The position numbers and the translations under genes are program-made. This document shows positions 3,561 to 41,029 of a stretch of DNA of 41,029 nt, in pieces; within the stretch, counting starts at the first letter, position 1; every line of letters starts with the position of its first letter. The notes beneath the pieces are model-generated. The model saw only the letters and a list, made by a program, of their open reading frames with translations. It had not been told where the DNA came from and did not search any database. The DNA is from a virus. The stretch lies in the UHGV virus genome UHGV-0145872; one strand, 5' to 3'.

Positions 3561-3950
3561 TTACTCTTTTTTCTCCGTATCTACATCGGGTTCATCAGCA
3601 AATAGCTTGCCCTGCATCCGATCCAGTTCTTCTTTTCTTACCCGCTTAACCACGCTGTAGACCCACTGAAGCGAAACACCAAATTTGCGGGCCAGTTCAT
3701 GGTGGTTACGTCCGTTAAACTCCCTGAAGATTTCCCGGTCGCGCTGACTGACCTTCCATACCATGCCCATCGGGAAATAAACGTTTTGCCCGCCCCAGAC
3801 CTGCATCATGCGGTTCGCGACGGCCTGACCAATCTGGTCGGCAATTGCGGGCTCAATATCAATAATCTCGCGAACGGTCTCAGAGGTATGCTGTGCCAGT
3901 TCCACCAGGAGTTCCGGCCCTTTACTTCGAAACTGATTCAGGTCGCTCAT
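3561..3950 (-). CDS. mor: Mor/C-family transcriptional activator (129 aa)
   Basis: C-terminal region (GGQNVYFPMG...FREFNGRNHHELARKFGVSLQWVYSVVKRVRK) matches the conserved core of Mu Mor/C activators as I recall them; same length as Mu Mor; last gene of the early arm. Confidence 0.8.
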   Translation of the reverse strand: MSDLNQFRSKGPELLVELAQHTSETVREIIDIEPAIADQIGQAVANRMMQVWGGQNVYFPMGMVWKVSQRDREIFREFNGRNHHELARKFGVSLQWVYSVVKRVRKEELDRMQGKLFADEPDVDTEKKE

Positions 3951-4579: not shown

Positions 4580-4799
4580 TCTGAATATCCCCCCAACTGA
4601 TATGAATATTACGGGCAGCAATGACAGGGTCGTTATTCCACCATGCACCTGACATGTATTTTTCAACCTGTTCGCGTCCGGCAATAACACCAATTGTGAT
4701 CCCCGGCCTGACGTTCTTAAAAAAGGCGCGGGCAAAAAGGTATCTGGCAGATATTCGGCAGGCTTTTAATTTCCGGCTGTTACCTGATAGCGTAATCAT
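4569..4799 (-). CDS. hypothetical small protein (76 aa)
   Basis: ORF fills the gap between the 239 aa gene and the gemA region on the coding strand of the early operon; no motif. Confidence 0.3.
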   Translation of the reverse strand: MITLSGNSRKLKACRISARYLFARAFFKNVRPGITIGVIAGREQVEKYMSGAWWNNDPVIAARNIHISWGDIQNDG

Positions 4800-5515
4800 C
4801 TGGCCTCCAGTTTCTGTTGTTCCTGCCCACTGACCGGGCGGTGCAGTCTGACGTTCTGCCCTTCACGAAACCCCGCATAGCGCGAGGCGTCGCCATTGCG
4901 GCTTCTTCCCGGTTTACGCGCCCTGGTGGTTTGCGTTTGCGGGTATTTATGTTCCAGCCACTGTTGCATCAGTTCACGCTCATCATCGGTCAGGGCAAAG
5001 GACTGTATTTCACTGATAACGGCCAGTACCCAGCCTTCAGCAAACTGGTTTCCACGGCTGGTACGGGTGGCGTTTTTTATTCTTTTGTTCTGTGCGCTGA
5101 TATACTGCTGACGCGCCTTTTTCAGTTGGCGGACCAGCACTTCCCAGGTGTACGCAGCCAGTGCCGCTCGTTCCCGGTTACCGTAGAACCCCACAGACGG
5201 ATGCGTGCCGGGGTGAATGATGGAGTTAACACCAAATGCCTCGCGGATGATGTTCATCAGGCCCAGCATGTAGCGCGGTGGACGGAGACTGCCTGTCGGC
5301 CAGTAATGACTGATGGTTTCATCAATATCACTCATAGCAATGTCGGAATGTGTGATGCCGTGAACATCCATCAGTTTACGGGCTCGGCGCAGTGCCAGAG
5401 CGGCCTCGTGCGGGTTGCCGGATGCGGCCAGCGCCAGCAACTTTTTCAGTTTCTCAATGTGTTTATTCTGGTCTGTCATTGTTCTGTATCTCCGGTATTT
5501 TTCTGCCGTTTCCAT
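4796..5515 (-). CDS. conserved phage protein, DUF2786-like N-terminus (239 aa)
   Basis: N-terminal KHIEKLKKLLALAASGNPHEAALALRRARKLM motif resembles the DUF2786 family common in prophage early regions (recalled); stop overlaps downstream gene start. Confidence 0.5.
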   Translation of the reverse strand: METAEKYRRYRTMTDQNKHIEKLKKLLALAASGNPHEAALALRRARKLMDVHGITHSDIAMSDIDETISHYWPTGSLRPPRYMLGLMNIIREAFGVNSIIHPGTHPSVGFYGNRERAALAAYTWEVLVRQLKKARQQYISAQNKRIKNATRTSRGNQFAEGWVLAVISEIQSFALTDDERELMQQWLEHKYPQTQTTRARKPGRSRNGDASRYAGFREGQNVRLHRPVSGQEQQKLEAR

Positions 5516-5691
5516 GCCCGGACAGCGTCGGACAGCTCTTTCAGGCTGTATGCTGCTTTAAGCTTTTCCCATAACCACTGTGTTGTTATGTGCATCAGCA
5601 GGGCAGCCAGGGCTGCCCCCGCACTGAGGCATGTCGCCAGGCCAGTAAGAATCAGTGTCCATGCGGTGATTTCCCTGAGTATGTCAGCCAT
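5476..5691 (-). CDS. small membrane protein (71 aa)
   Basis: Single hydrophobic helix WTLILTGLATCLSAGAALAALLM; in early operon orientation. Confidence 0.35.
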   Translation of the reverse strand: MADILREITAWTLILTGLATCLSAGAALAALLMHITTQWLWEKLKAAYSLKELSDAVRAWKRQKNTGDTEQ

Positions 5692-5705
5692 TGAATGCCT
5701 CCCGG

Positions 5706-6002
5706 TTACTCGTTCGTGTAAATCACGCCCAGTCGTGCAGCCAGACGTTCCAGTTTTTTCTGTTTGTGGAAGTCAATCAGCCGGTCCATCCCCTGAAGGC
5801 GCAATTGCTCTGTCATGATTTCCACGTCTGCCAGCTCTGCCGCGAGGTCACTTTCGCTGCCCTGTCCGTTCAGATTGCGGGCAGCACTGGCCGCCAGTTC
5901 AGCGGCCTCTTCTGTCAGTTTCAGGGCCTGTGCGTCCGGCCCGAAACGCTGCAGGGCCAGACGGTAGAGGGCGGTGCGGGTGAGTATGGTGTTCCGTGTC
6001 AT
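5706..6002 (-). CDS. hypothetical early protein (98 aa)
   Basis: ORF in early operon orientation, tightly packed with neighbours. Confidence 0.4.
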   Translation of the reverse strand: MTRNTILTRTALYRLALQRFGPDAQALKLTEEAAELAASAARNLNGQGSESDLAAELADVEIMTEQLRLQGMDRLIDFHKQKKLERLAARLGVIYTNE

Positions 6003-6011
6003 GCCGCGCCC

Positions 6012-11827: not shown

Positions 11828-11913
11828 TGTTGTCTCCTTTGTTGATGCAATGATGTTTGTTTTATATGTGATAGATTATGAGAACTATTATTCTCATTGT
11901 CAATGAGGTTTAT
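11828..11913. promoter_or_regulatory. divergent immunity promoter/operator region
   Basis: On the minus strand TTGACA (plus coordinates 11897-11902), a 17 nt spacer, then CATAAT (11871-11876) form a near-consensus promoter reading toward the early operon; a 15 bp palindrome CTCATTGtCAATGAG (11889-11903) overlaps its -35; a weaker plus-strand TTGATG/TATATG pair could drive the repressor. Confidence 0.5.
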
Positions 11914-12339
11914 GTGAATTTTGATTCTCTTTGCGCGTCGCGGTTCAAAGCTGAGCGTTCGCGGTTATCACTCAAGCAGGCTGAAGTAGCAGCCCTTTGT
12001 GGCGTTTCAAGAGAAATGTGGGGGAAATATGAACGAGGGGTTGCTGTTCCCGGAGGTGAGTTACTTGCAGCCTTTGCAAGAATTGGGGCCAATGTACAGT
12101 TCATTCTTACCGGGGAGTCATCAGGTATAACTTTATCACGTGATGAAATGGAGTTACTGCAGCACTACCGGCAGGCACCATTACAGGTCAAAGGTTCAGT
12201 TTTGTCGGCCTTGACTACTGGCTCCTCCAGAGAACGGGCGGAACAGGTTATTCATGGAGATGTTCTGGGGAATGTTATCAAAGGTAACGTAACCATAGGA
12301 ACAGGTGGAATAATGAACAAAAATACCAAGAGAAGATGA
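11878..12339 (+). CDS. XRE-family HTH repressor (prophage c/CI analogue)
   Basis: HTH segment LSLKQAEVAALCGVSREMWGKYERG; divergent from the early operon; alternative GTG start at 11914 has a GAGGT RBS; stop overlaps start of the next gene (ATGA). Confidence 0.65.
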   Translation: MRTIILIVNEVYVNFDSLCASRFKAERSRLSLKQAEVAALCGVSREMWGKYERGVAVPGGELLAAFARIGANVQFILTGESSGITLSRDEMELLQHYRQAPLQVKGSVLSALTTGSSRERAEQVIHGDVLGNVIKGNVTIGTGGIMNKNTKRR

Positions 12340-13322
12340 GTAAAGAGAAGCAAACAGTTAACGGGGATGTGGGTAACGTTGTCAGCGGTGATGTTACCAT
12401 TCATAACTATTCTGCTGACATACTTCCTTCGGCCCAGCAACCAATTTCGTTGCTGCAAAAACGCGATTTACACAGATTGATGGATGAATTGGTTGATCTG
12501 GGGGAAAGTAAGCGCGAGCTATGGATGACGATCCACACGAAACTTAATACCAAAACAGTTAATGAAATGACTGCGGCTGATTATCATGGTGCGGTTGAGA
12601 TCCTTCAGAGATATGCACAACAGATCCAGAATATGAAGGACTGTAATCTTCTGGTCAGCAAAATAATGGCGCTTACTGACCCTGGGTATCGTCTTGACCG
12701 TGACAGATACTGTCTGAAGCATTTCGGTACAACCCATCTTAAAGGCCTAGACAAAGAGCAGTTGCAGGCTGTGTTTGGTTATTTTGATGATCTGCTGAAT
12801 ATTCGTGATGAGAGTAAAACTCTATCACCTCCATCGGAAAGCGGTGCAAAATCAGTCGCAACTGTACCAACCAGAAGCCGGAAGCCTCATGTAGTAGTGT
12901 TGGGGGGAGTGTTAGTTCTTGTAGCAATATTTTTCGTGGGAATGATTGTGTTCGCTGGTAAATGGGGAAATGCCAAAGCAGTAGCTTCTACTGAAACCAG
13001 CGTTTTTAACATTAAAACCAACAATAAAATAATAGAAGATTCCATCCCCGCACTGCGCAGCATGTTTCCAGGGTTAAATAAGTACTCAGATGATTTCCAT
13101 TCGGTTTCAAGCTACAAGCAAAAAACGGGCTGGCATACCCTTAAATTTACTGTATCAGCAAAGGCATCCGTCCCCGAAAATTATAGTGTTAAGGGCAAGG
13201 TTTGTTACATTAACATAAGCCCTGATGGTAGTTATGCTCGGGTTTTGACTGCTCCATGTCGTTCACTGCTACTTGATCAGCAAAGCACTCCTGACAGTAA
13301 ATACCGTTTTATTCTTAAATAG
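12336..13322 (+). CDS. bitopic membrane protein co-transcribed with repressor (328 aa)
   Basis: Single TM helix (HVVVLGGVLVLVAIFFVGMIVFAG) separating an about 185 aa N-domain from an about 120 aa C-domain; start overlaps repressor stop; no family recognised. Confidence 0.5.
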   Translation: MSKEKQTVNGDVGNVVSGDVTIHNYSADILPSAQQPISLLQKRDLHRLMDELVDLGESKRELWMTIHTKLNTKTVNEMTAADYHGAVEILQRYAQQIQNMKDCNLLVSKIMALTDPGYRLDRDRYCLKHFGTTHLKGLDKEQLQAVFGYFDDLLNIRDESKTLSPPSESGAKSVATVPTRSRKPHVVVLGGVLVLVAIFFVGMIVFAGKWGNAKAVASTETSVFNIKTNNKIIEDSIPALRSMFPGLNKYSDDFHSVSSYKQKTGWHTLKFTVSAKASVPENYSVKGKVCYINISPDGSYARVLTAPCRSLLLDQQSTPDSKYRFILK

Positions 13323-13412
13323 AAAATAACAGCTGAATTACCATGGGATCAGAAAAAAGACAAAGGCGGCATCATGCTGCGTTCTGAAATTTTAATGTAA
13401 AAGGTGATGAAC

Positions 13413-13994
13413 ATGGCAGGGATTCAGGTTATCGCAGGAAGTTTTCCTAAAGGGTGGGCAAGCATGGGGTTCGGTACCATCGTGTTTGCCAAAAAACCAA
13501 AACAAGGCTTTCCTGAAAATATTGTATTAAATCTGAAAGAAGAGCTTTTATCGATTGAACTTGCGGATAGTGAAGAGGAAAGCCGTATAGGTAAGGCGGC
13601 AGGCGCAGGTTTGCTTGGTGGATTAATCTTTGGTGGTGCAGGGTTGGTCATTGGAGGTTTGCTTGGTGCGGCGGACAAGACGAAAAAAACTATCACTTTT
13701 AAGGCAATGTTTACGGGAAATAGGTTACTTCTGGCTAAAACAGATTCAAAAACTTTTGTAAAACTTCAGTCAATTGCTGCTGATAATGCCCATAACGCAT
13801 CTGTAATCAACATGAAGCAAACTAATAGGGGCGATGTTTCTTCTCGTAAACAACTAACAGAAAATCCACAGCAGCAAGACTTACCTGCGCCCGCTACAAC
13901 AGTAAAAATGACTGCCAAAGATAAGTTAGAATCGGCTCTTGGGCTGGGAATCATCGTTATAGCTGTTTGGGCAATAATACACTTCTTTTTTTAG
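13413..13994 (+). CDS. glycine-zipper membrane protein (about 193 aa)
   Basis: GKAAGAGLLGGLIFGGAGLVIGGLLGAA glycine-zipper segment plus C-terminal TM LGLGIIVIAVWAIIHFFF; AGGTGA RBS 5 nt before ATG 13413 (the six-frame ORF begins at GTG 13404). Confidence 0.5.
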   Translation: MAGIQVIAGSFPKGWASMGFGTIVFAKKPKQGFPENIVLNLKEELLSIELADSEEESRIGKAAGAGLLGGLIFGGAGLVIGGLLGAADKTKKTITFKAMFTGNRLLLAKTDSKTFVKLQSIAADNAHNASVINMKQTNRGDVSSRKQLTENPQQQDLPAPATTVKMTAKDKLESALGLGIIVIAVWAIIHFFF

Positions 13995-13995
13995 T

Positions 13996-14020
13996 GCAGC
14001 CCTTCAGGGCTGTTTCTGTT
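13996..14020 (+). terminator. candidate rho-independent terminator of the repressor operon
   Basis: GC-rich hairpin CAGCCCT..AGGGCTG followed by TTTCTGTT directly after the stop of the glycine-zipper gene. Confidence 0.4.
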
Positions 14021-14031
14021 CAGGAGGTATC

Positions 14032-14508
14032 TTAAGGATTATCCGGGGCGTTTTCCTGTTTGCCGTACTTCGGAGACGAACAACATTCTGTTGGCTGACC
14101 GGTGAGTTTACGTAACTCCTTCATGAGCAGCTCCTGATCGTAAACTGTCATCAGTGCCGCAATGGTGGCATGCAGTGCATCGGGCAGTATCCAGGGTTGC
14201 CGGCCCGTGGGGCATATAACATCCAGCAGCTCATTCGTCCGACAGATACGCTCCTCGCCGTATGACAACAGGCCCTGTCCCGTGTATTCCTCTAGCCTGA
14301 TCACTGTGCCACCCCGTGGCTTCTGCCAGGTCGTCAGATCTTCGCCATTCATACGGCGCTCATTCTCCACGTCAGCAGCATCGACAATGACGCTGTTTCC
14401 GAGTTCCTGTTTCACCATCTCTTCTATCCGCGCCAGTACGTAACTTTTACCGCTGCCCACAGGACCGGACACAGTGACAGTGATGACCGGATTCAGTGTG
14501 TGCGTCAT
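14032..14508 (-). CDS. small P-loop NTPase-like protein (158 aa), antisense to flanking operons
   Basis: Walker A GPVGSGKS near the N-terminus followed by a hydrophobic strand VIVDAAD; strong GAGGAG RBS 7 nt upstream of the ATG; convergent with the repressor operon and divergent from the late operon. Confidence 0.5.
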   Translation of the reverse strand: MTHTLNPVITVTVSGPVGSGKSYVLARIEEMVKQELGNSVIVDAADVENERRMNGEDLTTWQKPRGGTVIRLEEYTGQGLLSYGEERICRTNELLDVICPTGRQPWILPDALHATIAALMTVYDQELLMKELRKLTGQPTECCSSPKYGKQENAPDNP

Positions 14509-14638
14509 ATCGTATTCTCCTCTGTGAATAATTCATCGTTTATCCTGCACATCCCGTATCCCCGGCTCTCTTAACGCGCTTTAAAATCCTTTGCGCCCTG
14601 TATTTGTGATGCTGTCTCCACCAAACGAGGAGACACAC

Positions 14639-14989
14639 ATGAAAAACCTGAAAAAATTCATTCCCCCTGTTAAAAAACCTCGCCTCAGCGGCTGGCTGCT
14701 GACCTCAGTGCTGTTGCTGGGCACCATCGCTCTGGTCTCACCACAGCAGCTGCCTGTTGTGATCTACAAGCTGGCACTCATCACGCTGGCAGCAGTGCTG
14801 GGTTACTGGCTTGACCGTTCGCTCTTCCCCAAAGCCCGTCCCGGTCAGTACCTGAAACATGACGACAGGCTGATGGCTGAAGGGCGTTTCCCGGTACAGA
14901 CCGGCCTTCACCTGGTGTTTTCTGCTGCGTTAATCCGCCGTGCACTGATTGTTGCAGCGGTCTGCCTGGCTGTTGCGATGGGGCTTTAA
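14639..14989 (+). CDS. putative holin-like membrane protein (116 aa, 3 TM)
   Basis: Three hydrophobic helices; GAGGA RBS 7 nt before ATG 14639; lies immediately upstream of the endolysin. Confidence 0.45.
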   Translation: MKNLKKFIPPVKKPRLSGWLLTSVLLLGTIALVSPQQLPVVIYKLALITLAAVLGYWLDRSLFPKARPGQYLKHDDRLMAEGRFPVQTGLHLVFSAALIRRALIVAAVCLAVAMGL

Positions 14990-14991
14990 TC

Positions 14992-15732
14992 ATGAACTGG
15001 CCGCAGATCACCTGGATTGTATGCATGTCCCTGAAACTGGCTTTCGAAGCCTTTCGGGTCTTCATCAGAACCGAACGCCTGTCAGTCCGCGCCGGGACCT
15101 TTCTGGTTCATATGGCATGGGTATTCTTTGTCGCAATGTTGCTCTGGTGTGGCGGCTTTTTCAGCCAGGCATGCGCAGCACAACCTCCGCAGGCTGCGCT
15201 GCAGTATCGCGATGATGTGATCCGTAATGCCCGGCTTGAATGGGGACTGTCTGCGCCGGTGGCCGATTTCGCCGCGCAACTGCATCAGGAAAGCGGCTGG
15301 CGACCTGATGCGATCTCGCCGGCTGGCGCTCAGGGACTGGCGCAGTTCATGCCTGCCACTGCCGACTGGATAAGCCAGTTGATACCGATGCTGAGCAGTC
15401 GTGAGCCGTTTAATCCGGCATGGGCTATCCGGGCGCTGGTCAGCTATGACCGCTGGCTGTGGCAGCGTGTCAGCGCCGCCAGTGACTGCGAGCGTATGGC
15501 CATGACACTGTCGGGCTATAACGGTGGTCTGGGCTGGGTACAACGGGACAGGCGGCTTGCATCACAGAAAGGTCTGGACAGCACCCGCTGGTTCGGACAT
15601 GTCGCCACGGTGAATGCCGGACGCAATGCGGCCAGCTGGCGGGAGAACCGCCATTATCCGCAGCGCATCCTGCGCGAACTGGCACCGCGATATCTCACAT
15701 GGGGAGGCAGCAGTTGTGTGGCATCTGATTAA
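14992..15732 (+). CDS. endolysin, lytic transglycosylase (SLT domain), possibly with signal-anchor
   Basis: Catalytic-region motif LHQESGWRPDAISPAGAQGLAQFMPAT typical of SLT/goose-type transglycosylases; hydrophobic N-terminal segments; start uncertain. Confidence 0.7.
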   Translation: MNWPQITWIVCMSLKLAFEAFRVFIRTERLSVRAGTFLVHMAWVFFVAMLLWCGGFFSQACAAQPPQAALQYRDDVIRNARLEWGLSAPVADFAAQLHQESGWRPDAISPAGAQGLAQFMPATADWISQLIPMLSSREPFNPAWAIRALVSYDRWLWQRVSAASDCERMAMTLSGYNGGLGWVQRDRRLASQKGLDSTRWFGHVATVNAGRNAASWRENRHYPQRILRELAPRYLTWGGSSCVASD

Positions 15733-16366: not shown

Positions 16367-16689
16367 CACTGCAGGTTGAATTCTGGACGGTGGTGAGTTT
16401 TCTGCTCACCTTCATGGGGTTTGTGGGAGGGCTCGCCAAATGGTTGTTCAGTAAAACAGAAGAACGCCAGGCGGCACGATTCGCCTCCCTTGAACAGGCC
16501 CTGCAACAATCCGCCTCCAACTGGGGCGAGCTGGAAAAAGAATTTATGCGATTTAAAGCGGATTTACCGCTGAATTATGTCCGTCGAGAGGATTATATCC
16601 GTGGCCAGACAGTCATTGAGGCCAAACTGGACGCGCTTTATAACAAACTGGAAGTGGTACAGCAGTACCGCAATACCGGAGGTCAATAA
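16363..16689 (+). CDS. small membrane protein conserved in Mu-like late regions (108 aa)
   Basis: N-terminal TM (FWTVVSFLLTFMGFVGGLAKWLF) plus coiled-coil tail; position after spanins and before packaging genes. Confidence 0.5.
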   Translation: MTLQVEFWTVVSFLLTFMGFVGGLAKWLFSKTEERQAARFASLEQALQQSASNWGELEKEFMRFKADLPLNYVRREDYIRGQTVIEAKLDALYNKLEVVQQYRNTGGQ

Positions 16690-17000
16690 TGGTCGATATT
16701 ACCCGGGTACGCCGCGAATCCCTGCGCTGGAGTCTGCTGGTTGCCCTGAACAAGACCCGCCCTTACACCGCCAGCGAGACGCTGCTGCTGGATGTGTCCC
16801 GTGCCATCTACCCGGACACCACACCGCTGGAACTGCGCCGCGAACTGGATTATCTGGCTGACCGTAAAATGGTTGATCTGGAGAAAAAACCTTCTGGCGA
16901 CTGGTTTGCTGACCTGACCCGCCTCGGCGTAGACCTGGTGGAATACACCGTGGAATGTGGTCCGGGTATTGCCCGCCCGGAAAAGTACTGGAGTGAATAA
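16689..17000 (+). CDS. conserved phage protein (103 aa)
   Basis: Start overlaps the upstream stop; positional equivalent of the small gene preceding the terminase small subunit in Mu-like phages. Confidence 0.45.
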   Translation: MVDITRVRRESLRWSLLVALNKTRPYTASETLLLDVSRAIYPDTTPLELRRELDYLADRKMVDLEKKPSGDWFADLTRLGVDLVEYTVECGPGIARPEKYWSE

Positions 17001-17545
17001 TGGCCAGACGCAGCACAATAGAAAAGCTGCCGGAAGACGTGCGCCGCTGGCTTGAACGGGCGCTGACTGAATCCGGCTTCAGCGGGTATAACGAGCTGGA
17101 GTCCCTGCTGCGTGAGCGGGGGTACGTCATCAGCAAATCCGCTATCCATCGCTATGGACAGAAGATTGAGCGCCGCTATGGTGCTATCCGTGCGGCAACA
17201 GAAGCGGCCCGCATGCTGATCGAAGGCGCAGCAGACGATCAGGATGCGCGTTCGGAGGCTGTGATAGCCCTTATTCAGACCGAGCTGTTCGAGAGTATTG
17301 TCCAGTTGCAGGAGGCGGAAGAAGGCGAAGTCGATCCTAAAGAACGCGTGGCCCTGCTGTCGAAGGTGGCGAAGAATGTGGCTACGCTGTCCCGCGCGTC
17401 CGTCAACCTCAAAAAGTTCCAGTCTGAAGTACGGGCCAGAGCGCAGCAGGCAGCCAGCAACGCCGAGAAAATTGCCCGTAAGGGGGGACTGTCAAGCGAC
17501 GCAGTACAGGCGCTTCGTCGCGAGATTCTGGGGATTGCCACATGA
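17000..17545 (+). CDS. terminase small subunit-like protein (DUF3486 / Mu gp27 analogue)
   Basis: N-terminal HTH-like segment (EKLPEDVRRWLERALTESGFSGYNELESLLRERGYVISKSAIHRYGQ) and coiled-coil C-terminus; immediately upstream of the terminase large subunit. Confidence 0.6.
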   Translation: MARRSTIEKLPEDVRRWLERALTESGFSGYNELESLLRERGYVISKSAIHRYGQKIERRYGAIRAATEAARMLIEGAADDQDARSEAVIALIQTELFESIVQLQEAEEGEVDPKERVALLSKVAKNVATLSRASVNLKKFQSEVRARAQQAASNAEKIARKGGLSSDAVQALRREILGIAT

Positions 17546-38079: not shown

Positions 38080-38694
38080 TCAGCTGGCAAGTGCCAGTGG
38101 CGCTTCCGGCCAGCTGATTTCAGGTGCCGTGCTGATATCCAGTGCGTTCAGCTCGTCGATATAATCCAGCACGGCGTTCAGTTTTGCCGTTTCTTCTGGT
38201 GTCAGACTGCGACCAGCACGCAGTTTGAGGTTGATAAGATCGACGGACGCCATCGCCTGTTTCACCCGTTGCTGGCGTTGCTGTCTGGCAACCTCCAGTT
38301 CTGCGGCTCGCTGCCGTTCAGTATCGGTTACCCACGCCTCACCGTTCCAGGTATCCCATGGCGTGGCCGGCTGTTTTGTGGTGGTGTCCGCCGGGTAATC
38401 ACCCGGTTGGGTAATCAGAACGGGGTTACCGTTCTCCGTGCTGTATACCGTCTCGCCGCGGTGATCAGGCACATGCTCCCACCCGTTCAGCGTGGCAGTC
38501 CGGCAAACCACGTAACCCGAAATTGCCTCCGGCGGTGCATCGGCGCACGAATGTGCCGGAGTACCCACCCCAAGGGCGAGATACTCCACAGAGGATGAGG
38601 TGTATTCCCGGGTTTCCTCGTCATAGTGATATACAGTGATCTCGCCCGCTACAGTGGCGATACCGTTTTCATCCAGAACTGCAGTGTTACTCAT
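38080..38694 (-). CDS. tail fibre assembly protein (Tfa / Mu U family)
   Basis: 204 aa; C-terminal LNAVLDYIDELNALDISTAPEISWPEAP is the conserved Tfa-family tail; translationally coupled to cassette 2 on the minus strand. Confidence 0.75.
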   Translation of the reverse strand: MSNTAVLDENGIATVAGEITVYHYDEETREYTSSSVEYLALGVGTPAHSCADAPPEAISGYVVCRTATLNGWEHVPDHRGETVYSTENGNPVLITQPGDYPADTTTKQPATPWDTWNGEAWVTDTERQRAAELEVARQQRQQRVKQAMASVDLINLKLRAGRSLTPEETAKLNAVLDYIDELNALDISTAPEISWPEAPLALAS

Positions 38695-39227
38695 TAAACT
38701 GCCCTCACAATGTAATTAAGTGCAATGCTACGGGGTCTGACAGTGATACCCTTCGCATACCCGCTTCTGATAGAGGTCAGAATAGTAGCCTGCATACCAT
38801 TGTCTGACATTGCCACGACAGGATCGCTGAATGTTGTCCCGTCCGGCATTTTAAAGCTGCCCTCACGAAGGTCTGTAATGGAATCTTCATTGTTGAATCC
38901 CATGCCGACTATCCCCGAGGTTCCCGTAGTGTCCTGGTTATAATAATCCAGCATTGCTGTTCTTAACAGCGTTGCCCCTTGTGCGGACAGCAACTTACGT
39001 CCTGTATCAACTTTGCGCCCGTCGTCCCATCCACGGATAAACTCACCGCGTAAATCGGGAAGACGGAGGGTCGGGTAGACTCTGGCCAGAACAGGATATT
39101 GTTCTTTGGTGAACGTAGCTCCGTTGCACTGTAACCAGCCTGCTGGCGGTGTGGCGGTGGGCCACGGAACAGGCACACCAACGGGTAGCGCCGAGCCTTC
39201 TCCTAAACCAACGTTTTTATGCGGCCC
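38694..39227 (-). CDS. silent alternative tail-fibre C-terminal cassette 2 (collar domain, no start codon of its own)
   Basis: Begins ...NVGLGEGSALPVGVPVPWPTATPPAGWLQCNG..., near-identical to the junction in the expressed fibre, then diverges, then ends with the conserved ...NYIVRAV; frame open from crossover site B. Confidence 0.65.
   Translation of the reverse strand, partial: GPHKNVGLGEGSALPVGVPVPWPTATPPAGWLQCNGATFTKEQYPVLARVYPTLRLPDLRGEFIRGWDDGRKVDTGRKLLSAQGATLLRTAMLDYYNQDTTGTSGIVGMGFNNEDSITDLREGSFKMPDGTTFSDPVVAMSDNGMQATILTSIRSGYAKGITVRPRSIALNYIVRAV
39198..39223 (+). other. candidate invertase crossover site B
   Basis: TTCTCCTAAACC-AA-CGTTTTTATGCG; same 12-2-12 architecture and conserved left half-site; opposite orientation to site A. 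Confidence 0.55.
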
Positions 39228-39732
39228 TTACGATGTAATTAAACGCAACATTGCGGGGGCGCATTGATATCCATGCCCCGGTAAAATTATCCTCCGCTGT
39301 CCTTTGAATACCCGTTATAGAGTTATCTGCTGATGCAGGAACATAATCGCTATTATTTCCTGCTTTAGGATTAGCTGGGTTTCCAACGGTTATAACAGAA
39401 TCAGCAGTAGCAAAAGCGATACCTACTTTGACATTAGTATTCAGATCGTAACCGTAATAATCCTGCAAAGCTGTACGAATAAATGTTGCAGCCTGACCAC
39501 TTAGCAATGAACGCCCCGTATCAACTTTGCGCCCGTCGTCCCATCCACGGATAAACTCACCGCGCAAATCGGGAAGACGGAGGGTCGGGTAGACTCTGGC
39601 CAGAACAGGATATTGTTCTTTTGTAAAGGCGCGCCCGTCGCACTTTAACCAGCCTGCTGGCGGTGTGGCGGTGGGCCATGGAACAGGCACACCAACAGGC
39701 AGTGCAGAGCCTTCCCCCAAACCAACGTTTAT
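39217..39732 (-). CDS. silent alternative tail-fibre C-terminal cassette 3 (collar domain)
   Basis: Begins EINVGLGEGSALPVGVPVPWPTATPPAGWLKCDG... and ends ...NVAFNYIVRAA; frame open from crossover site C; its stop lies inside site B. Confidence 0.65.
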   Translation of the reverse strand: MNVGLGEGSALPVGVPVPWPTATPPAGWLKCDGRAFTKEQYPVLARVYPTLRLPDLRGEFIRGWDDGRKVDTGRSLLSGQAATFIRTALQDYYGYDLNTNVKVGIAFATADSVITVGNPANPKAGNNSDYVPASADNSITGIQRTAEDNFTGAWISMRPRNVAFNYIVRAA

Positions 39733-39791: not shown

Positions 39792-40261
39792 ATGCTGATT
39801 GGCTACATACGTGTGTCAACAAATGACCAAAACACAGATTTGCAACGCAATGCATTAATGTGCGCAGGATGTGAACAGATTTTTGAGGACAAAATGAGCG
39901 GAACCAAGTCGGAACGACCAGGCCTGAAACGCGCTTTAAAGTGCCTTAAAAGAGGGGATACATTGGTGGTCTGGAAGCTGGATCGGTTGGGTAGAAGAAT
40001 GAAACACCTCATTGCTCTCACAGAAGAGCTACGCGCAAAAGGTGTCAATTTTCGCAGTCTGACGGATTCAATCGATACCAGCACTCCGATGGGAAGGTTC
40101 TTTTTTCATATGATGGGTGCACTGGCAGAAATGGAGCGTGAACTGATAGTTGAGCGCACGCTGGCAGGACTGGCTGCTGCGCGAGCACAAGGAAGAGTTG
40201 GAGGACGTCGCCCGAAACTGACGAAGGAGCAGCATGAGCAGATCGCAAGATTGCTCCAGAA
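39792..40261 (+). pseudogene. Gin/Cin/Pin-family serine DNA invertase, 3' end truncated by IS26 insertion
   Basis: N-terminus MLIGYIRVSTNDQNTDLQRNALMCAGCEQIFEDK... is near-identical to Gin/Pin as recalled, with the catalytic Ser in RVSTNDQ; after about 157 codons (…RRPKLTKEQHEQIARLLQK) the frame runs into the IS26 inverted repeat and ends after 16 IS-derived residues; the C-terminal HTH domain is missing. Confidence 0.8.
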
Positions 40262-41029
40262 GGCACTGTTGCAAATAGTCGGTGGTGATAAACTTATCAT
40301 CCCCTTTTGCTGATGGAGCTGCACATGAACCCATTCAAAGGCCGGCATTTTCAGCGTGACATCATTCTGTGGGCCGTACGCTGGTACTGCAAATACGGCA
40401 TCAGTTACCGTGAGCTGCAGGAGATGCTGGCTGAACGCGGAGTGAATGTCGATCACTCCACGATTTACCGCTGGGTTCAGCGTTATGCGCCTGAAATGGA
40501 AAAACGGCTGCGCTGGTACTGGCGTAACCCTTCCGATCTTTGCCCGTGGCACATGGATGAAACCTACGTGAAGGTCAATGGCCGCTGGGCGTATCTGTAC
40601 CGGGCCGTCGACAGCCGGGGCCGCACTGTCGATTTTTATCTCTCCTCCCGTCGTAACAGCAAAGCTGCATACCGGTTTCTGGGTAAAATCCTCAACAACG
40701 TGAAGAAGTGGCAGATCCCGCGATTCATCAACACGGATAAAGCGCCCGCCTATGGTCGCGCGCTTGCTCTGCTCAAACGCGAAGGCCGGTGCCCGTCTGA
40801 CGTTGAACACCGACAGATTAAGTACCGGAACAACGTGATTGAATGCGATCATGGCAAACTGAAACGGATAATCGGCGCCACGCTGGGATTTAAATCCATG
40901 AAGACGGCTTACGCCACCATCAAAGGTATTGAGGTGATGCGTGCACTACGCAAAGGCCAGGCCTCAGCATTTTATTATGGTGATCCCCTGGGCGAAATGC
41001 GCCTGGTAAGCAGAGTTTTTGAAATGTAA
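40262..41029 (+). mobile_element. IS26 (IS6 family), partial: left inverted repeat and complete transposase gene; right end lies beyond the window
   Basis: 14 bp terminal inverted repeat GGCACTGTTGCAAA at 40262-40275, followed by the characteristic IS26 leader and the Tnp26 ORF; the 820 bp element would end at about 41081. Confidence 0.9.
40325..41029 (+). CDS. tnpA: IS26 transposase Tnp26 (234 aa)
   Basis: Protein MNPFKGRHFQRDIILWAVRWYCKYGISYRELQEMLAERGVNVDHSTIYRWVQRYAPEMEKRLRWYWR...GEMRLVSRVFEM matches IS26 transposase as I recall it; stop codon at the window end. Confidence 0.9.
   Translation: MNPFKGRHFQRDIILWAVRWYCKYGISYRELQEMLAERGVNVDHSTIYRWVQRYAPEMEKRLRWYWRNPSDLCPWHMDETYVKVNGRWAYLYRAVDSRGRTVDFYLSSRRNSKAAYRFLGKILNNVKKWQIPRFINTDKAPAYGRALALLKREGRCPSDVEHRQIKYRNNVIECDHGKLKRIIGATLGFKSMKTAYATIKGIEVMRALRKGQASAFYYGDPLGEMRLVSRVFEM

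Follow-up and report, generated by a model that had tools for sequence, protein, structure and literature searches.

The closest isolated relative of the element considered here is Escherichia phage PhiKM (Bcepmuvirus), which encodes a member of PHROG 3787, a phage protein family of unknown function. Among P-loop NTPases, the Walker B motif is a hydrophobic strand ending in Asp (hhhhD, often DE) that coordinates Mg2+, and the P-loop domain of the KAP group comprises ~300 amino acids (aa), usually with inserted transmembrane helices. Designed P-loop prototypes bind nucleoside triphosphates (NTPs), polyphosphate and single-stranded DNA (ssDNA), and act as dimers to higher oligomers (Vyas et al., 10.1101/2020.07.30.228619). 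The UHGV virus genome UHGV-0145872 (41,029 nucleotides; the whole of this stretch is referred to as the window) includes a 158-codon open reading frame (ORF) with an ATG start at positions 14032–14508 on the reverse strand, the product of which begins MTHTLNPVITVTVSGPVGSGKSYV and has the Walker A motif GPVGSGKS at aa 15–22. This ORF is a real gene under selection and more than a chance ORF, and it is very probably a modular PHROG 3787 gene that includes an autonomous mini P-loop domain.

The product matches the PHROG 3787 profile with an E value of 2.1e-107 (359 bits), aa 1–157 aligning with positions 1–157 of the 242 in the profile. Of 5426 complete E. coli genomes searched by megablast with the gene alone, 570 carry it, in every case in the chromosome, which corresponds to about one in ten, ST131-type clinical lineages included. 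A 1.8-kb region that includes part of the lysis cassette was matched in 634 genomes; hence, the gene is present in ~90% of the related E. coli prophage copies. The ratio of nonsynonymous to synonymous substitution rates (dN/dS), calculated pairwise against diverged alleles, is 0.13–0.28 in both halves of the gene, and ~98% of the catalogued copies are intact as judged by cluster sizes. The catalogue holds ~1190 sequences of 247 aa, ~380 of 158 aa, ~60 of 182 aa and ~30 of 141 aa, as well as some 30 internally truncated fragments. The initial annotation of the window had called the ORF an orphan, which does not hold given its distribution in E. coli and its presence at the same slot on 24 BcepMu-like IMG/VR contigs. 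A comparison across related prophages, suggested there as a check of presence or absence, revealed that the gene is positionally conserved, both in the E. coli copies and in the diverged L005, L054 and Citrobacter braakii (L020) loci.

Databases already list the gene, but under misleading names, and no function has been described for its family. The product is labelled 'ABC transporter ATPase' by PGAP (WP_000149906.1), and both this and the KAP NTPase name used in RefSeq are wrong; recognition of a distinct modular phage family corrects the annotation. No structural or assembly role, which the initial annotation had named as incompatible with its proposals, is known for PHROG 3787.

Several degraded copies were also observed. 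The allele in E. coli A24 (L004, NZ_CP028751, positions 4980–5366) is decaying, as GAGGAG is deleted and the match stops at nt 357; PGAP labels it 'KAP family NTPase'. Further E. coli fragments of 46–118 aa were found (P0105, P0106, P0017 and others). P0031 (118 aa, from an ENA metagenome) has an N-terminal 73 aa that are YgfB/UPF0149-like (PF03695), in frame with the last 46 aa of the 158-aa allele, and this chimera may have arisen by recombination or be an artefact of assembly.

In an exhaustive profile search, 67 relatives of the protein were recovered from 1.84 billion representatives, and almost all of these have only the first ~75 residues in common with it. Conservation was assessed in an alignment of 53 homologues with identity down to ~21–30%. 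The gene and its N-terminal part in the window are described by the following features.

14032 to 14508, reverse strand: coding sequence of 158 aa, the short (N+M) allele of PHROG 3787, defined by the profile match and dN/dS values above.
14517 to 14522, reverse strand: Shine-Dalgarno sequence GAGGAG (as read on the gene strand), 8 nt 5′ of the ATG at 14506 to 14508; the element lost in the decaying A24 allele.
14281 to 14508, reverse strand: N module, aa 1–76, mini P-loop domain; the part common to the 67 remote homologues, with an AlphaFold2 (AF2) predicted local distance difference test score (pLDDT) of 86–92 over aa 11–70.
14443 to 14466, reverse strand: Walker A motif GPVGSGKS.
14356 to 14361, reverse strand: E50-R51 (E-[RK]), in helix 2.
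14287 to 14289, reverse strand: E74 at the C-terminal end of strand 3 (IRLEE), nearly invariant.

The P-loop ORF with a canonical Walker A and a good ribosome-binding site reported in the initial annotation was thus recovered. In the alignment, the N domain consists of a hydrophobic strand, GxxGxGK[ST], a helix with I28, a short strand, E50-[RK], W61, P64, a further strand and E74; G15, G20 and K21 are invariant, and I28, E50 and E74 are each conserved in at least 90% of the 53 homologues. The layout is strand 8–14, Walker A 15–22, helix 21–39, strand 40–44, helix 45–54 and strand 68–74, with the strands taken from a shallow model. Walker A lies between strand 1 and helix 1 and is conserved in the homologues, as is characteristic of the P-loop superfamily, while the three-layer α/β fold with a central sheet of at least five strands was not found. 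Stand-alone family members of 75–90 aa exist. No further annotated relatives came from a second protein search that used the N-domain profile. Judged from these comparisons of sequence, this is a minimal P-loop domain family that is used modularly by phages.

A canonical Walker A could also belong to a conventional P-loop enzyme, namely an ABC-type ATPase, a KAP NTPase, or a nucleotide, shikimate-type or zeta-toxin-type kinase, and weak matches to the AAA_30, AAA_22, KAP_NTPase, Zeta_toxin, ABC_tran and guanylate/uridine kinase models were indeed obtained. However, every match in the Pfam, NCBIfam and PADLOC libraries was a Walker-A match below the curated threshold that covered about aa 4–63, and all 53 aligned homologues were likewise sub-threshold in the family libraries. 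The scores were 17.9 bits against a cut-off of 27 for AAA_30, 14.6 against 20 for KAP_NTPase (PF07693; aa 4–43 only, with any match in just 2 of the 53 members), 12.6 against 22.3 for Zeta_toxin (PF06414), 13.6 against 25 for ABC_tran (PF00005; aa 4–49 only), and 12–13 against 180–263 for the NCBIfam kinase equivalogs. The best of the PADLOC-DB defence models (SngB, E = 0.007) matched a Walker-A-only stretch and was not significant. PDB profile matches to ABC nucleotide-binding domains fit Walker A, helix 1 and the next strand only, and this short similarity probably explains the PGAP name. The 158-aa protein includes no hhhhD Walker B and no DxD motif, and no LSGGQ was found, the sole loose regular-expression match, LSYGE, being in a non-conserved linker. 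A Q-loop, H-loop, lid or substrate domain is likewise absent, and the conserved domain stops at ~aa 75, the size of the stand-alone members. A conventional enzyme is therefore extremely improbable, and this possibility is largely refuted. The names ABC ATPase, KAP NTPase, kinase and zeta toxin were rejected, as they fail the thresholds, their motifs are absent and there is no fold match; the kinase, zeta-toxin, KAP and AAA families put forward in the initial annotation for profile and structure searches thus found no match above threshold.

Beyond residue ~76, the proteins of the family are mosaics of helical modules. The remaining features of the window gene are as follows.

14101 to 14256, reverse strand: mapped part (aa 85–136) of the M module (about aa 77–140), with three predicted helices; defined by AF2 and homologue comparison.
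14032 to 14100, reverse strand: low-confidence tail (AF2), aa 137–158, and stop codon; ends ...PDNP*, as in a diverged 158-aa allele.

The window allele has the composition N+M. The commoner 242/247-aa allele has a C module in addition, and a Dam methylase gene usually lies downstream of it. The M module recurs at the C-terminus of P0034 and P0036. Both it and a further module, 'X', also occur without a P-loop, in P0066 and P0068 (each with M) and in the product of an ORF at the corresponding slot of Klebsiella phage KP12. The C module of the 242/247-aa allele is limited to the E. coli set, and PHROG scans of longer variants showed that the extra modules of other members are unrelated PHROG families of unknown function. 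At the DNA level, the M module of the window is identical to that of the ST131 allele over 177 nt, whereas the N modules differ at 22 of 228 nt; hence, the gene is a DNA-level mosaic within E. coli.

In L054 (Logan ERR14042360, positions 5001–6009) the slot is split into three genes. The first encodes an 88-aa stand-alone mini P-loop (the N part), the second is a 161-aa ORF that overlaps the first by ATGA and matches the fused forms in their middle and M parts, and the third is a 76-aa ORF resembling C-type modules. This pattern of fusion and fission argues for joint action of the modules, with the N domain as an autonomous unit.

Compared with the 242/247-aa form, the window allele stops short, at ...QENAPDNP*. 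It could therefore be a non-functional 3′-truncated relic of the longer gene, left when a low-GC immunity module replaced the Dam module. The absence of the C module of the majority allele, the end of DNA homology to PhiKM and ST131 at ~14044, near the stop codon, the six IMG/VR contigs of the window type that have no downstream Dam gene, and the clear decay of some E. coli copies (A24 and the 46–118-aa fragments) would all fit this. However, the ~380 catalogued 158-aa sequences form three clusters of 83–87% identity that all end in ...PDNP*. A second 158-aa allele, 83% identical to that of the window, shares its final codons and stop, but what lies downstream differs and includes Dam, and the sequences part directly after the stop codon; dN/dS between the two alleles is 0.27 in both modules. 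The same stop in a diverged allele with another context indicates a recurrent, maintained module boundary and not an accidental truncation. Still shorter natural forms, of 141 aa and the 88-aa stand-alone, also exist. As far as the comparison of alleles can tell, the short allele in the window is a maintained form and no random truncation, and a relic is very unlikely. Simple truncation by the immunity module was rejected, given the diverged allele with the same stop in another context.

The slot occupied by the gene was examined in ST131 (L003), PhiKM (L001), Logan L005, L015, L017 and L054, Citrobacter braakii (L020) and the 24 BcepMu-like IMG/VR contigs. In all of these enterobacterial relatives, the gene starts ~130 bp from the holin gene and reads away from it, as the first leftward gene from holin. 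A Dam-type methylase gene (MethyltransfD12) is usually found downstream on the same strand, 0.4–2.4 kb away, followed by the repressor gene. In the window type (the window and the six IMG/VR contigs mentioned), there is no Dam gene and a three-gene repressor operon abuts the gene. BcepMu is without the gene, and its gp17–gp20 are all on the holin strand. In KP12 (L019, OM835952), the slot next to the holin gene holds an unannotated 127-aa ORF (4614–4997, reverse strand) with a '...KTYTLSVDA...FASGENNVMMIGNVAATS' module, which is known from the C-terminus of several family members, and no P-loop. A profile scan of genome contigs was dominated by generic P-loop patterns and gained one locus, that of Citrobacter braakii. 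The gene marks an accessory slot of BcepMu-like phages that is fixed in position and hypervariable in content. Comparable slots elsewhere have yielded anti-defence and exclusion genes. Within the window, the slot is bordered by the following.

14509 to 14638, no strand assigned: 130-bp divergent control region common to the gene and the holin/late operon.
13996 to 14013, no strand assigned: GC-rich hairpin between the convergent genes, terminator-like for the forward strand (196-aa gene).
11878 to 12339, forward strand: repressor of 153 aa with a helix-turn-helix (HTH) domain (HTH_31/HTH_3), converging on the 158-aa gene.
Within 11878 to 13994, forward strand: ORFs of 328 aa and 196 aa downstream of the repressor gene, converging on the 158-aa gene.
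14639 to 14989, forward strand: holin, Holin_2-3 (PF13272), diverging from the 158-aa gene.
14992 to 15732, forward strand: SLT endolysin, diverging from the 158-aa gene.

The packaging and morphogenesis genes are also on the forward strand, diverging from the 158-aa gene, which is monocistronic in the window and on the opposite strand to both adjacent operons. The arrangement mapped from the window ORFs is consequently the one given in the initial annotation, antisense to a convergent repressor operon and a divergent late operon, in a variable accessory region with immunity on one side and lysis on the other.

The initial annotation had considered this position and orientation typical of a moron. 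Morons are, in the lambda-type sense, independently transcribed insertions, and a moron or lysogenic-conversion gene would be transcribed on its own and, in the lysogen, would provide toxicity, superinfection exclusion, or a defence or anti-defence function. The gene resembles lambda-type morons in being a small, monocistronic opposite-strand gene between two modules of a variable region that is missing from the type phage BcepMu, and the P-loop-less KP12 slot, the variable C-terminal modules and the intact state in hundreds of lysogens would also suit such a role. It differs from them in its native composition. The guanine plus cytosine (GC) content of the 158-aa gene is 54.3%, and 60% at third codon positions (GC3), close to the holin, endolysin and terminase genes (GC 56–60%, GC3 62–65%; GC of 55.8% for holin, 59.9% for SLT and 57.6% for TerL). 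It is the adjacent repressor operon (11878–13994, forward strand) that is the compositional outlier, with GC of 42–46% and GC3 of 36–40%, and this looks like a swapped-in immunity module.

The gene further differs from lambda-type morons in that neither a promoter nor a terminator of its own was detected. A consensus scan revealed no sigma-70 promoter in 13300–15100, and on the strand of the 158-aa gene the hairpin at 13996–14013 is followed by an A-run and not by a U-tract. The position and the upstream region are conserved in diverged relatives, and absence of the gene is seen only in distant members (BcepMu). The control region, common to the gene and the late operon, is nearly identical among the E. 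coli alleles, and two conserved blocks, ATCCTGCACATCC (14542–14554) and TTAACGCGCTTTAAAA (14571–14586), are both kept in the diverged L005. In L054 the second block is clearly kept (as TTTTAAAGGGCATTA on the gene strand) and the first is matched in part only. The block TTAACGCGCTTTAAAA has a TAAAAT −10-like hexamer on the holin strand and no −35; a −10 without a −35 is expected for promoters activated by Mor/C-type proteins. A Mor-family activator is encoded at window positions 3561–3950. Moreover, the window encodes no partner antitoxin, and PADLOC gave no significant match. A moron in the sense of the initial annotation is therefore unlikely. In enterobacterial BcepMu-like transposable phages, the gene is a genuine accessory gene of the backbone type, and this arrangement of upstream sequences suggests that, rather than being an insertion with constitutive expression, it is more probably switched together with the late control region or by it. 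TTAACGCGCTTTAAAA was also considered as a recurring regulatory site and rejected, as its other matches are in coding sequence (16628–16643 in the late operon and 39926–39951 in a Gin-like invertase gene).

The leader of the holin mRNA can form a hairpin (14603–14643, forward strand) with the stem GUCUCC...GGAGAC and flanking pairs (free energy, dG, −14.2 kcal/mol; z −2.9). The holin Shine-Dalgarno sequence is buried in this hairpin, which extends to the AUG, and the GTCTCC/GGAGAC stem is kept in L005 and L054; the hairpin may serve translational control of lysis. A remote family member, P0087, in L010 (Logan SRR5431744, positions 1919–2398), has PG_binding_1 (E = 5e-15) N-terminal to the mini P-loop, an endolysin-like architecture in which the P-loop stands where a catalytic domain would be.

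A product expressed from the common 130-bp region might tune the timing of holin and endolysin or late transcription. Such a regulator of lysis or late expression would account for a position that is always adjacent and divergent to holin with conserved intergenic blocks, and would be in keeping with the PG_binding_1 fusion and with the conserved leader hairpin that sequesters the holin ribosome-binding site. However, the remote members in L006, L009 and L012 are found in other phage surroundings, away from recognised lysis genes, BcepMu has the same lysis cassette and no copy of the gene, and the fusion is one case in ~100. The 158-aa protein also has no membrane segment and no match to a DNA- or RNA-binding domain. 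A lysis regulator is thus very improbable.

Taken as a whole, the data are best explained, though tentatively, by an oligomeric phospho-ligand switch with variable helical partners that is under late control and has a role in conflict. The mini P-loop would work as an oligomeric phosphate- or nucleotide-binding switch, possibly weakly hydrolysing, with active sites possibly completed across subunits by K21, E74 and perhaps R51. The switch would control or deliver the helical partner modules, fused or translationally coupled to it, and would be transcribed from the activator-type control region common with the late lysis operon, hence in lytic growth, to act in phage-host or phage-phage conflict. 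A unit of 75 residues and three strands cannot alone form the five-stranded P-loop core, and an oligomeric switch is therefore the simplest reading; oligomers of the designs that bind NTPs, polyphosphate and ssDNA make such a mechanism physically plausible. The N domain is confident in AF2 (pLDDT 86–92), yet DSSP finds no strands in the monomer model, and structure searches with the model matched no known fold, which would be compatible with an obligate oligomer. The shuffled hypervariable partners, the fixed slot and the neighbouring Dam, repressor and membrane-protein genes point to the conflict role, although they favour none of anti-defence, exclusion, support of DNA modification, and control of lysis or late genes over the others.

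Several observations weigh against this explanation. D43, after strand 2, is variable, and although E74 sits at a position like that of the Walker B or catalytic Glu, the residue preceding it is not acidic in many members; hence, classical Walker B coordination of Mg2+ is doubtful. One subclade has SGAE(S/N)(S/A)GKN together with E50K and, from these replacements, is probably non-catalytic, so that catalysis would not be universal in the family. The AF2 monomer model may simply be wrong. The proposed timing of expression is drawn from the lack of a consensus promoter and from conserved blocks whose function may be confined to the holin promoter, and the conflict role is suggested by genomic context, with no significant match in PADLOC. 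A literature search under the protein accessions, PhiKM and the ST131 BcepMu-like prophages found nothing on the gene.

A bolder form of the proposal, which is quite unlikely, is that the N domain is a natural, autonomous minimal P-loop, of a size below that of all natural P-loop NTPase domains characterised so far, whose oligomers bind, and perhaps hydrolyse or sequester, nucleotides or other phospho-ligands, and which serves as a portable switch on shuffled effectors. If this were true, the switch could sponge nucleotide immune signals or gate anti-defence or exclusion activity, and it would be a living counterpart of the laboratory 'P-loop prototypes'. Were the 75-residue domain functional alone, it would be a natural test case for the minimum size of a phosphate-binding domain of the NTPase type.

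The gene is carried by a transposable E. coli prophage of the BcepMu-like type. Over the 1.8-kb region, the window has 100% identity to chromosomal prophages in E. coli IAI39, CE10 and SF-173, and the IAI39 copy is annotated as a Mu-like transposable prophage in which genes for a Mor activator, Gam, an ExeA-family protein, a DDE transposase and DUF3102 share one strand, with the lysis, terminase, portal, head and contractile-tail genes on the opposite strand. The gene for a DUF3486/Mu gp27-like small terminase is a pseudogene with an internal stop in IAI39 (L002, 18701–19246) and is intact, with 181 codons, in the window (17000–17545); the window is therefore a sibling prophage copy and not that of IAI39. 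A serine recombinase gene (MLIGYIRVSTNDQ..., Gin/Cin-like invertase) at ~39793–40350 on the forward strand lies beside opposite-strand ORFs (38080–39720, reverse strand) at the tail-fibre end, which suggests an invertible host-range segment, as in Mu. The 328-aa and 196-aa proteins include hydrophobic, membrane-like segments and have no Pfam match; gp18 and gp19 of BcepMu are in the equivalent place, and the two proteins are candidates for superinfection exclusion. An Rfam scan found no RNA family in the window.

Among described proteins, that of PhiKM (XRL29432.1) is the closest. The window protein is 92% identical to it and is encoded at the same slot, but the PhiKM protein, like the PHROG 3787 profile, is 242 aa long, whereas the window form is 158 aa, with no C module and no Dam gene beside it. 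With the P-loop NTPase superfamily, the phage domain has in common the hydrophobic strand, GxxxxGKS and the helix, as well as a conserved Glu that ends a later strand. It differs in size (~75 aa, with three strands and two helices, against ~150–250 aa), and in the absence of a classical hhhhD, of family-specific motifs, of a Pfam or NCBIfam match above threshold and of a structural match. Designed minimal P-loop proteins were among the better PDB profile matches (6c2u, E = 4e-4; the de novo ATPase PL2x4_2, 9jix, E = 5e-4, aa 6–65), and like these prototypes the phage domain is a short β-(P-loop)-α polypeptide. Unlike the laboratory constructs, it is natural and selected, and includes the additional conserved E50-R/K51, W61 and E74. 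By analogy, the likeness to the designs shows how the phage domain might work, and not common descent.

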